Source of the DNA: a virus
Lineage: Duplodnaviria > Heunggongvirae > Uroviricota > Caudoviricetes
Length of the DNA stretch: 40,166 bases
Reading direction: 5' to 3' (one strand)
Virus record (IMG/VR): IMGVR_UViG_2671180740_000012
Part shown: piece by piece, positions 18,001 through 21,000 of the stretch
Layout: the number at the start of each line of letters is the position of its first letter
Numbering within the stretch: the stretch's first letter is position 1
Made by a program: the position numbers

Positions 18001-21000
18001 TCTATTATCAGACCGGCAACAACTGACTGAATTGAGATGTATTTAACATTTATGAATCTCCGCCTGCTATTTTCACTGAGCTATTCTGAGTCAACGAAAA
18101 ATAACTTCGCTGAATCCCCCTCCATTATGACAGGCATTAGTTTTAATGGTTACAGTCATCCCCGTAATTTGCGCACTGAGAAGAAGAGACTGAAGATTCC
18201 ATCTGTTGGTAAATAATTCTTTATCACCCACTTTAACTGTAAAGGTATCGTCATCATTATATTTTGTATACTCCACCTTTCCAGTTACACAATCAGGCGT
18301 CGCCAGCGCACTTGCTGAAAAAAATGAAAGCGATGCAGCTATTAATAATGTTTTTTTCATTTTACCCCCTCAACTGCTAATAGTTCTGCGCATCAGAATT
18401 GCCCCCAGAGTGGATGAATCCCACAATATTTTATTGTGCGTAATCCCACGGACTCTTCCATCTGCCGGACACATAGAAGGAAACTCATCAGATGCCATTC
18501 TGGCAACTCGCGATGCATGATGATGACAATTCAGTATTAATGCCACGCTTCCCAGAATTGCATTAATGCTTCCAAAAGAAATTCTTCCTACACGAACAGA
18601 GTCTTGTCCATGATAGTCAGGCAGGACACTACTCAACCTTCCCCAGTTCAATGTAAGATCAACATCTTCAGCAGTCATTACATAAGAACGCCCACTGAGA
18701 TCATCCAGTGTTGTACGAAATCCCCTCTGTATTTGCCGAAAACGTAAAGCTTCAGCTGTCACAGTAACAAACCGTAACATCGCTCTTGCCACAGACTGCG
18801 TCAGTGAGGTTCCACTATGCGACATTAAATCCAGATAAGAAGTAGTCAACGAATGGCGATTTATCTGCATCCCCGTACGACTGATCCCTGCAACACGCTG
18901 TAACGTGGTATAGCTACTGTCACCAGACAATGTAACCGCTGTTGTACCTGGAAAGGTAACATGTGAAAAATCAGCAAAGCGATAAAAAACATTATTTGTC
19001 CTGTTAACAAATCCTGTCACATATAAATTATTTCGTTCAACAATAAGCCGTAGATTATTAAACCGCCCTTCCTCTGGATCTATCCCTCTGACATCAACTG
19101 CAAACAAATTATCCCCTGTGCCACTATCAATCATCAGTAAAGACGTACCTCCTGATGAAATAGTCTGTAATGGAGTACCTATTGCAGAGCGAATGACATT
19201 CAGCGAATCTACATACGTCTTTGCAGTCGAGAAGTCTAAGGTAAATTCCTTCGCAACCACATTAACTGAAAAGATAACAAAGAAAAAAGTTAGCACTCTA
19301 AAAATAATTATTTTCATATTACACAATACTCCTTGAGCACCATACGATAACTATATTCTTGACATCCTCCACCCCCTGAAGGACGGCGTTTTACGGCGCA
19401 CCGGATAAACGTAACAATAACGTAATGAAAATGATAATTATATTCAAAGAGAGCTGCAACCTTAACATATCTGGTCAGATCTCATGCGACTACTTGACGT
19501 ACGTAGACAACAACATTTATTGATACACAGGATGTTACGGACATAAAAAAGCCAGCCACTGGGGGGCTGGCAAACTCGTAGAGCAAAATGCTGTTACGCA
19601 AACTTCGTTACAGGGTCATCCTGCAATACAAAAAATACACAATATTTAGAAAACTAATAGTGCCATGTGCGATTTTTAAGATTTTGTTATTAATTGTGGT
19701 CGCACCTTCCTTTCTGTGTACTTTCCGTATAGCTCAGAGGATTCTGGGTACAAAAAAACCCCGCTCATCGACGGGGTCGGCTGCGTGGCAATGCAACCAC
19801 TCTTATCATGATATGCAGATTTTTACGTACGTAAAATACTTTTTAGCACCCCATTCAATCGGGAACGGAATCAAGGATTCCGCGACACTTCACACCACCT
19901 CTGGTGGGGATTTGCGGGGCCTTTTTTTACCAATTAGCGATGTATTCAGTCGGCGTTGTTTCGTGCTTCTGCATGAACGGCACCAGCTTTGCGGCCTTTT
20001 CTTATTCCCGCAAATTCTGAATCCGAATTTTTTCTCAATTTCATCATTAGATATAGCGACTTTCCCGCAGAGGGGGCAAGTATGCTTTTTATCACAACCA
20101 CTTTTCAATAACCAAATTAACCGGCGGATTAATGGCTTGATATCATAGATGTTTCGCAAATCATCGTCATGATCGATTTGCGCGTAACTTATCTTCTGTA
20201 ACATATCTTTCTCCTCCAGACACACCAGGACTCCTTGTATGGCGTCCCGGGATGTACGCATTCTGGTGGCAAAAAGAGATATTGATGGTAATGTTTGCGA
20301 ATCTACGTCCTGGTGAAATGAAACAAAATTAGCCAGCAGAAGTAATTCTGAATAGTTTAACTTTAACCTGTTCTGGTATTTCAAAAGCTCTTTGAGGATA
20401 ACGAACCAGTCAATGCTTAAAATATCATCATTCCACAGAGACAGATCATTGTCTTCCGCCTCCAGAAAATCTTCAATGTCCATTTTGCCCCCTGTTCATT
20501 GTTGTATATATGTTATTAACAGGTAGATAACTCTTACGTCCCTGTACTATAAAGTAAACAGCATAACGCTCACAAATTGACACACTTCACATAGTGAACG
20601 GCAAACGCCTCCTGTCAGAGGCGTTGCACATATCGGTCCATTTCCAGTCTGACACCAAGTAACATTAACATCCCTTCAACCACACCCTCCGCTTTCTGTA
20701 ATTTTTTACCGATAGTTCCATCAGAGCATCCATGCTTACGTGCCAGCGCCATGAATGTCTCCCCCAACACGTAATAATCAACCAGCAAGTCATGCAGATC
20801 GCTGTTGTTCCTGTTAAGGCGAGCCATACACCCGCATATAATCATCGCGTCATCGTCACAACACTGTGGACGTGATTTTACTTTTTCGGGGATCAGTCCC
20901 TTAAATCCGGCAGCAATGGGCGACCATGTAACATCCTCATAGTTATTTGCCGCCCATGCACCCCAGCGCTCAAGAACCTGCCGGATATCACGCATCAGTA

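Follow-up and report, generated by a model that had tools for sequence, protein, structure and literature searches.

The gene ORF1, which encodes a 197-residue protein between the antiterminator gene Q and the stx1 operon of a Shiga toxin 1 (Stx1) phage, was analyzed in a 40,166-nucleotide stretch of DNA, the IMG/VR virus record IMGVR_UViG_2671180740_000012 (referred to below as the window). ORF1 was shown to be a genuine, selectively maintained accessory gene. Comparison of related loci placed it, as part of a cassette, between a short Q allele and an intact late promoter pR', upstream of the late transcription unit and not within it. Its product is predicted to be a sequence-specific DNA-binding regulator that would be co-transcribed with Q, a composite reading for which we regard the evidence as evenly balanced.

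The minus strand of the region carries, in this order, ninH, Q, ORF1, stx1A, and stx1B. The region matches the Shigella flexneri Stx1 phage POCJ13 at 100% identity and the Shigella sonnei phages 75/02 Stx and 7888 at 93-94%. The gene is annotated as "hypothetical protein" in POCJ13 and is the "ORF1" of phage 7888, from which the name is taken here. The features on which the placement of ORF1 depends are the following.

20615-20995, minus strand: antiterminator Q, 126-residue short allele of the Q933 family, ending in DRYVQRL* (Pfam Phage_antitermQ, 1.1e-51; annotated as Q in POCJ13)
19890-20483, minus strand: ORF1, accessory protein of 197 residues, PHROG 34160 (supported by the open reading frame (ORF) call, homologues, and the ratio of nonsynonymous to synonymous substitution rates (dN/dS))
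19808-19835, minus strand: late promoter pR' of the Q933 type, TTTACG-16-TATCAT, with a core common to loci with and without ORF1
19751-19778, minus strand: first leader hairpin followed by U7, spanning about +24 to +51 of the transcript that starts at pR'
19545-19571, minus strand: tR', terminator of the StxS leader, hairpin with U-tract (rho-independent terminator in the phage 7888 annotation)

Position of ORF1 Relative to the Late Promoter

The initial annotation had taken a promoter-like pair upstream of ORF1 for pR' and the first of two downstream hairpins for tR', so that ORF1 would lie in the pR'-tR' interval and be expressed constitutively in the lysogen. The ORF itself, the 131-bp gap that separates it from the Q stop (20615), and two terminator-like minus-strand hairpins with U-tracts downstream (19778-19751 and 19571-19545) were all found as described. 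The functional assignments had to be revised.

The canonical pR' core lies downstream of ORF1, 55 bp beyond its end at 19890 (55-70 bp across ORF1-bearing loci), and overlaps the perfect 16-bp palindrome TTTTACGTACGTAAAA (19821-19836). In the phages BP-4795 and Sakai Sp15, which lack ORF1, Q runs directly into TTTACG-N16-TATCAT, with the Q stop codon inside the promoter spacer. The pR' promoter of Sakai has been described as "closely associated with Q" (PMC7547250). pR' follows ORF1 in all ORF1-bearing loci that reach far enough, with or without stx (one IMG/VR contig stops earlier), and its core is identical, save two central bases, in 87 ORF1-less and 11 ORF1-bearing contigs.

For the Sakai Stx1 and Stx2a phages, pR' and tR' were mapped 258 nt apart by differential RNA sequencing (dRNA-seq) and Term-seq (Sy et al., PMC7547250). 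The Sakai coordinates given there are offset by ~136 nt from NC_002695.2, and the internal 258-nt distance was used instead. If transcription in Sakai starts 7 nt past TATCAT, the distance to the U-tract of the second hairpin is 258 nt. In the window the corresponding distance, from an inferred pR' start at ~19801 to the end of the second-hairpin U-tract at 19545, is 257 nt, and because of this agreement with the published value the second hairpin is assigned as tR'. The first leader hairpin stands at the same distance from pR' in ORF1-less phages. It may be an early leaky terminator or part of a Q-loading or pause region. In locus L007 it is the sole hairpin between pR' and two tRNA-Arg genes.

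The 257-nt leader at 19801-19545 is essentially identical to the StxS, or pR'-tR', leader of Stx phages (PMC7547250), for which the lambda 6S RNA is a further point of comparison. The leader is itself non-coding and, in contrast to cargo of the leader, ORF1 is situated upstream of pR'. With ORF1 ending at 19890, pR' at 19835-19808, and tR' at 19571-19545, ORF1 is outside the pR'-tR' interval, and its position does not imply constitutive expression in the lysogen; such expression would require the weak and poorly conserved sigma70-like site described below. The arrangement proposed initially, a constitutively transcribed leader containing ORF1, draws on geometry only, namely a promoter-like site upstream and hairpins downstream. 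It is contradicted by the shared pR' core downstream of ORF1, by the fit of the published leader length to that promoter and the second hairpin, and by the spacer upstream of ORF1, which has no counterpart in ORF1-less phages. We therefore consider it highly improbable.

Distribution and Linkage to Q and pR' Alleles

ORF1 is rare. Of 50,697 phage records, 5 carried it, and these represent 3 distinct phages; it was also found in 19 of 5,426 complete Escherichia coli genomes (mostly without stx) and in 12 IMG/VR contigs. A search of 5.8 billion protein sequences gave 16 clusters at 90% identity, each at least 76% identical to ORF1. The gene is hypothetical in all records, and the alternative that it is a conserved, annotated late gene of recognized function did not apply.

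ORF1 is not tied to stx. The toxin gene stx1A was present near it in 2 of the 12 IMG/VR contigs, the other 10 having no stx1A start in the retrieved stretch, and stx was missing from 4 of 9 annotated E. coli loci with ORF1. The gene also occurs in prophages of a uropathogenic E. coli (UPEC) strain and of a water isolate, and in strains with tRNA or terB-like genes after the late promoter.

Phages BP-4795 and Sakai Sp15 and 87 IMG/VR contigs have no ORF1, and in these contigs Q directly joins pR'; the view of ORF1 as an insertion between Q and stx1 was thus borne out. The ORF1-specific cassette is ~770 bp long and extends from within the 3' part of Q to the -35 region of pR'. It contains a hairpin over the Q stop codon, the 131-bp spacer, and ORF1, and the low GC content noted initially was reproduced (41.6% in ORF1; Q has 48.8% and the window as a whole 49.0%).

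The cassette coincides with a particular pairing of Q and pR'. In an exact-pattern scan of IMG/VR, the pR' palindrome was TTTTACGTACGTAAAA, with TA at its center, in 11 of 11 ORF1-bearing contigs, and TTTACGATCGTAAA, with AT at its center, in 87 contigs, none of which carried ORF1. The two-base swap at the dyad center preserves the symmetry of the palindrome. The two types compare as follows, where HTH denotes a helix-turn-helix motif.

AT-centered pR': Q of 144 residues, putative HTH CSDTCIGKRLHKAEG, C-terminal tail kept, ORF1 absent
TA-centered pR': Q of 126 residues, putative HTH CSDGTIGK(K/R)LQKAEG, ending in QRL*, ORF1 present

The 126-residue allele (Q126) was seen only alongside ORF1. 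Compared with the 144-residue allele (Q144), it lacks an 18-residue tail and has a different putative recognition helix. The association of Q126, ORF1, and the TA-centered palindrome is most simply read as tight linkage of the three in a single lineage of the Q933-type late-control region, although the split into two palindromes and two Q alleles may reflect a distinct Q/qut specificity type.

A regulatory meaning of this linkage was also considered. The target of ORF1 could be Q itself or the 16-bp palindrome that covers the -35 region of pR', and its binding there would tune StxS, late, or Stx1 expression. Consistent with this, ORF1 always stands 55-70 bp upstream of pR', TA-centered palindromes accompany it in every case and AT-centered ones in none, the linked Q allele has lost its tail and altered its putative recognition helix, and the plasmid relatives described below adjoin perfect palindromes. 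However, tight physical linkage suffices to explain the association, the pR' palindrome is also present in ORF1-less phages and is more likely an element for Q or RNA polymerase, and it does not resemble the plasmid palindromes in sequence. We consider such a role doubtful. The same caution applies to the idea that Q126, ORF1, and the TA-centered palindrome form a distinct Q/qut specificity cassette, in which ORF1 would be a third component that determines when or how strongly StxS, the late genes, and Stx1 are expressed; this, too, appears unlikely.

ORF1 as a Coding Gene

In pairwise comparisons with nine homologous loci, restricted to pairs with enough substitutions, the dN/dS of ORF1 was 0.18-0.34. 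For Q it was 0.04-0.16 in the same comparison. The ORF1 values argue for purifying selection and for a coding gene rather than a chance ORF. Between the window and phage 7888 the center of ORF1 has a synonymous divergence (dS) of ~0.6 and both ends are nearly identical; the ORF1 alleles therefore appear to be recombinational mosaics. The acidic N terminus and four zinc-ligand cysteines are invariant.

The gene is preceded by a G tract whose length differs between alleles.

20488-20492, minus strand: G5 tract, Shine-Dalgarno sequence of ORF1 (G4 to G6 between alleles)

In G4 alleles, for example protein P0009 and locus L011, an upstream ATG is in frame and adds five residues (MNRGK). In E. coli 06-00048 a frameshift splits ORF1 into two annotated coding sequences (L011, 2657-3249). 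As this copy shows, the prophage region can persist after ORF1 has been lost.

Domain Organization of the ORF1 Protein

The ORF1 protein was shown to consist of an acidic N-terminal tail, a winged helix of the type found in the DnaD N-terminal domain (NTD) and HTH_36, a C4 zinc finger, and a basic C-terminal tail, in agreement with the acidic N terminus, winged-helix-like center, and C4 zinc motif recognized initially.

20097-20408, minus strand: winged helix of the DnaD N-terminal/HTH_36 type, codons 26-129 (DnaD_N score and AlphaFold2 (AF2) model)
19968-20084, minus strand: C4 zinc finger (CPxCGK...EIExxFGFR...QSWCRxCR), codons 134-172, followed by the basic tail (four invariant cysteines)

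The first 25 residues have an isoelectric point (pI) of 4.05, residues 131-175 a pI of 9.7, and the tail a pI of 12. The Pfam family DnaD_N (PF21984) matched residues 31-127 with 33 bits (cut-off 27, E = 7e-8). HTH_36 remained below its cut-off in ORF1 (13.6 compared with 25) and was above it in the relatives P0017, P0021, and P0024. The extended winged-helix fold characteristic of DnaD_N and HTH_36 is present in ORF1, and a profile search of PDB sequences retrieved 2vn2 at 4.5e-15. An AF2 model built from a 37-sequence alignment reached a predicted local distance difference test (pLDDT) score of 71.7 and contained the winged helix at residues ~26-129, the zinc-binding module at 134-172, and then a helix; it supersedes an earlier model from 12 close homologues with a pLDDT of 57.9. 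The zinc-finger ligands are C136, C139, C168, and C171.

The initial annotation could not place the protein in a known family. PHROG 34160 matches ORF1 over residues 1-197 of 197 (E = 9.5e-133), and the function of that family is unassigned; the winged helix, however, scores above the Pfam threshold for DnaD_N. PHROG 186 matched residues 22-99 only (5.4e-4). No NCBIfam match was obtained, and the Pfam families Lar_restr_allev (13.5 bits, threshold 28.6) and zf-CHY (15.5 bits, threshold 31.3) stayed below threshold. In PADLOC-DB v2 no family matched ORF1 at E <= 0.05, and its relatives gave generic winged-helix matches only. A Foldseek search of the ORF1 model against BFVD returned nothing below E = 0.01.

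The best sequence and fold match of ORF1 is the NTD of DnaD (PF21984; PDB 2vn2, 2v79, and 8ojj), a replication initiation protein of Firmicutes. In contrast to DnaD, ORF1 gave no Pfam match to the C-terminal DDBH2 (DnaB_2) domain and has the C4 zinc finger and basic tail in its C-terminal half instead. It also differs in its setting, since it is found in a Gram-negative lambdoid phage, where it is dispensable and not part of the replication module.

Relatives of ORF1 on Plasmids

In a full scan of 1.84 billion representative sequences with a hidden Markov model, only a handful of full-length relatives of ORF1 were found. These are 38-42% identical to ORF1 over ~170 residues and reside on plasmids of 2.7-16 kb from Escherichia, Shigella, Salmonella, Citrobacter, Klebsiella, Edwardsiella, and Providencia. 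They are "helix-turn-helix domain-containing proteins" of small ColE1-type plasmids from Enterobacterales (for example, WP_123906182.1 on p3_005237, WP_224061231.1, and WP_072775496.1) and share the full architecture of ORF1, which differs from them in its distinct acidic N terminus and longer basic tail. Like ORF1, they are accessory cargo on mobile elements; on p3_005237 (2,959 bp) the relative is the sole annotated coding sequence.

The plasmid genes have characteristic surroundings, which are consistent across replicon backbones. A perfect palindrome of 46-50 bp is found immediately upstream of the gene, and on 4 of 5 plasmids a phased iteron array, with units of 11-12 bp or 33 bp, lies 0.4-0.55 kb downstream. 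These iterons sit between the relative gene and the ColE1 origin, and three of them have the core GCAAACA. The divergent neighbor is often a conserved, uncharacterized protein of about 150 residues or a weak match to YafO-family toxins. The former, 148-153 residues long, has the motif GNYWHYHCGPY...VIHYQK...VGFSP.H.PFP and no Pfam or NCBIfam match; in locus L018 the weak YafO-family toxin occupies its position.

L016, 718-763 and 1768-1932; L017, 1146-1195; L018, 3529-3645; L022, 1852-1956; L023, 2782-2838: palindromes and iterons of ColE1-type plasmids
L017, 344-805; L023, 940-1395; L013, 4263-4709; L024, 2683-3138, all minus strand: divergent protein of 148-153 residues

Palindrome, iterons, and ORF1 relative together look like an uncharacterized protein-plus-site module. 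This context supports sequence-specific DNA binding and autoregulation as properties of the family.

A replication role was weighed for both the plasmid and the phage proteins. As a replication initiator or replisome organizer in the manner of DnaD, lambda O, or Rep, ORF1 would bind an origin through its winged helix and recruit a helicase or primase through its zinc finger. The DnaD-NTD matches favor this possibility, as do weak matches of the relatives to the RepC N-terminal and Phage_rep_O families, PHROG matches between 5e-4 and 3e-3 to DnaD-like loaders and replication initiators, and the iteron arrays near the plasmid genes. On the other hand, ColE1 RNAI was identified on 5 of the 6 plasmids examined, and the plasmid of P0024, a relative in the winged helix only, has a Rep3 gene of its own. 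Because ColE1 RNAI replicons need no Rep, the plasmid relatives were rejected as Rep proteins and are regarded as accessory. For the phage protein, the missing DnaD C-terminal domain, the lack of iterons nearby, and the absence of ORF1 from most phages of this type, which makes it dispensable, likewise speak against replication, and we judge this role improbable.

The phage gene differs from its plasmid relatives in having neither the 5' palindrome nor the downstream iterons nor the divergent partner. No tandem or inverted repeats were detected around phage ORF1, and no homologue of the 150-residue partner or of the YafO-like toxin was detected in the window. An autoregulatory operator in the 5' untranslated region (UTR) of ORF1 was considered and dismissed on reading the alignment, in which the types of the variable 5' UTR assort independently of the recognition-helix alleles. 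The 12-bp tandem repeats at 11239-11368 (minus strand) were also discarded as binding sites; they are inside an ORF of 268 residues (10698-11504), taken to be the small terminase gene, and encode an IDHE/IDHK peptide repeat.

The Zinc-Finger Module

The zinc finger on its own is far more common than the full architecture. It was found as stand-alone proteins of 50-60 residues, as tandem arrays (one protein of 3,179 residues has 34 matched stretches), and as C-terminal fusions. Among the latter, it is appended to ResIII/DEAD helicases and to a protein with a motif read as a PD-(D/E)xK-like nuclease. A stand-alone zinc-finger gene stands beside genes for an SNF2 helicase, an Mrr-type nuclease, and a methyltransferase, and Nitrosopumilaceae and Myxococcota genomes contain multiple copies of the module. 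No curated family reaches threshold for the motif CPxCGK...FG(F/Y)R...QSWC(R/K)xCR.

Proteins P0018, P0020, P0025, P0028, P0050, P0062, and P0162 and loci L141-L219: examples of the zinc-finger motif

Transcription of ORF1

The spacer between Q and ORF1, which among phage records is present only together with ORF1, overlaps a hairpin and includes a promoter-like site.

20604-20625, minus strand: hairpin over the Q stop codon, AACGCCTC-TGACAG-GAGGCGTT (-18.1 kcal/mol, z = -3.3)
20546-20575, minus strand: sigma70-like site TTGTGA-18-TATAGT (9 of 12 consensus positions)

In loci L005 and L011 Q carries two synonymous substitutions, and compensatory changes in the non-coding arm of the hairpin keep the stem paired (AGCGCCTG...CAGGCGCT). 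Its tail is U-rich solely in L007 (the 2013C-3033 allele) and U-poor in most alleles. Weak termination is one possible role of the hairpin, and RNA processing or stability is another.

The promoter-like pair recognized initially upstream of ORF1 does exist. Besides not being pR', it is a weak match, because the 1.4-kb region contains 8 sites as good as TTGTGA-18-TATAGT, compared with 3.2 +/- 1.9 in shuffled sequences. Its -10 hexamer is not conserved, and in several homologous loci it ends without the T (TACAGG, TATAGG, and TATGTA).

These elements bear on the possibility that ORF1 is an autonomous moron, transcribed from its own sigma70 promoter (about 20575-20546), insulated by the Q-stop hairpin, and producing a protein in the lysogen for exclusion, defense, or host regulation. 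Morons are recognized by presence or absence between conserved flanks and by deviant composition; stx itself is a phage moron. ORF1 shows both traits, being present or absent at a fixed junction with a GC content of 41.6% compared with ~49% in its flanks, in a small, independent-looking cassette. In favor of this possibility there are also the promoter-like site, the covarying hairpin with a U-rich tail in one allele, the terminator-like hairpins downstream, the plasmid relatives, which are carried as cargo on their own and often have a divergent YafO-like toxin or 150-residue protein as a neighbor, and the isolated zinc finger, which adjoins SNF2/ResIII helicases and Mrr-type nucleases or is fused to them. 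However, the cassette is locked into one Q/pR' haplotype and does not move freely as morons do, and its own promoter and terminator are only putative, the former being the 9/12 site with the unconserved -10 and the downstream terminators those of the pR' leader only. The U-poor tail of the hairpin in most alleles, the lack of a PADLOC match, and the absence of a partner effector gene from the window also count against it. An autonomous moron is accordingly a possible explanation, but one that we hold only tentatively.

Transcription together with Q is preferred because no intrinsic terminator was found between ORF1 and pR' and ORF1 follows Q on the same strand. RNA polymerase modified by N and starting at pR would read through Q and ORF1, which would make ORF1 the last, delayed-early gene of the early-right operon. 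A weak promoter of its own could contribute, but is poorly supported. Transcripts made without induction or antitermination would stop at the hairpins of the pR' leader.

Other Features of the Window

18091-19317, minus strand: stx1A and stx1B

A tRNA scan of the whole window revealed no tRNA gene. An Rfam scan of 17.5-22 kb identified STnc100 only, with no family for the Q-ORF1 gap or the leader. The STnc100 match is full length (17799-18012, minus strand, 195 bits, E = 4e-46) and directly downstream of stx1B. STnc100-like sequence was also recognized by eye, without an Rfam scan, at two places in L005, an stx-less UPEC prophage locus (about 5200-5370 and 5670-5850).

Interpretation and Significance

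By analogy with the plasmid relatives beside palindromes and iterons, the ORF1 product would be an oligomeric, sequence-specific DNA-binding regulator, probably neither toxin-related nor a replication initiator. Several observations weigh against this proposal. In DnaD the homologous winged helix serves oligomerization and partner binding and not DNA binding; for this reason we base the proposed DNA binding by ORF1 on the setting of its plasmid relatives and on the basic tail of the zinc finger. No palindromes or iterons that co-vary with ORF1 alleles were found near the phage gene. The AF2 model is of moderate confidence, and the orientation of its domains relative to each other is unreliable. 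With respect to co-transcription with Q, the Q-stop hairpin could end early transcripts and leave ORF1 reliant on its own promoter.

ORF1 is an accessory winged-helix gene of a lambdoid phage with a predicted DNA-binding product, an uncurated zinc-finger fusion, and unexpected relatives on plasmids. It has been a hypothetical gene in GenBank for many years, and no discussion of it was found among searchable papers. The placement upstream of pR' shifts the question of its expression from leader read-through to early or autonomous expression. The comparisons also define a small family, a winged helix joined to a specific C4 zinc finger, that is common to lambdoid prophages and tiny ColE1-type plasmids. 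ORF1 adjoins the switch that controls Stx1 release in the phages that brought stx1 into S. flexneri and S. sonnei. Should it act on pR' or Q, toxin expression in the Stx1 phages emerging in Shigella would prove to have a new regulator. Otherwise ORF1 is an accessory gene of an ordinary kind.

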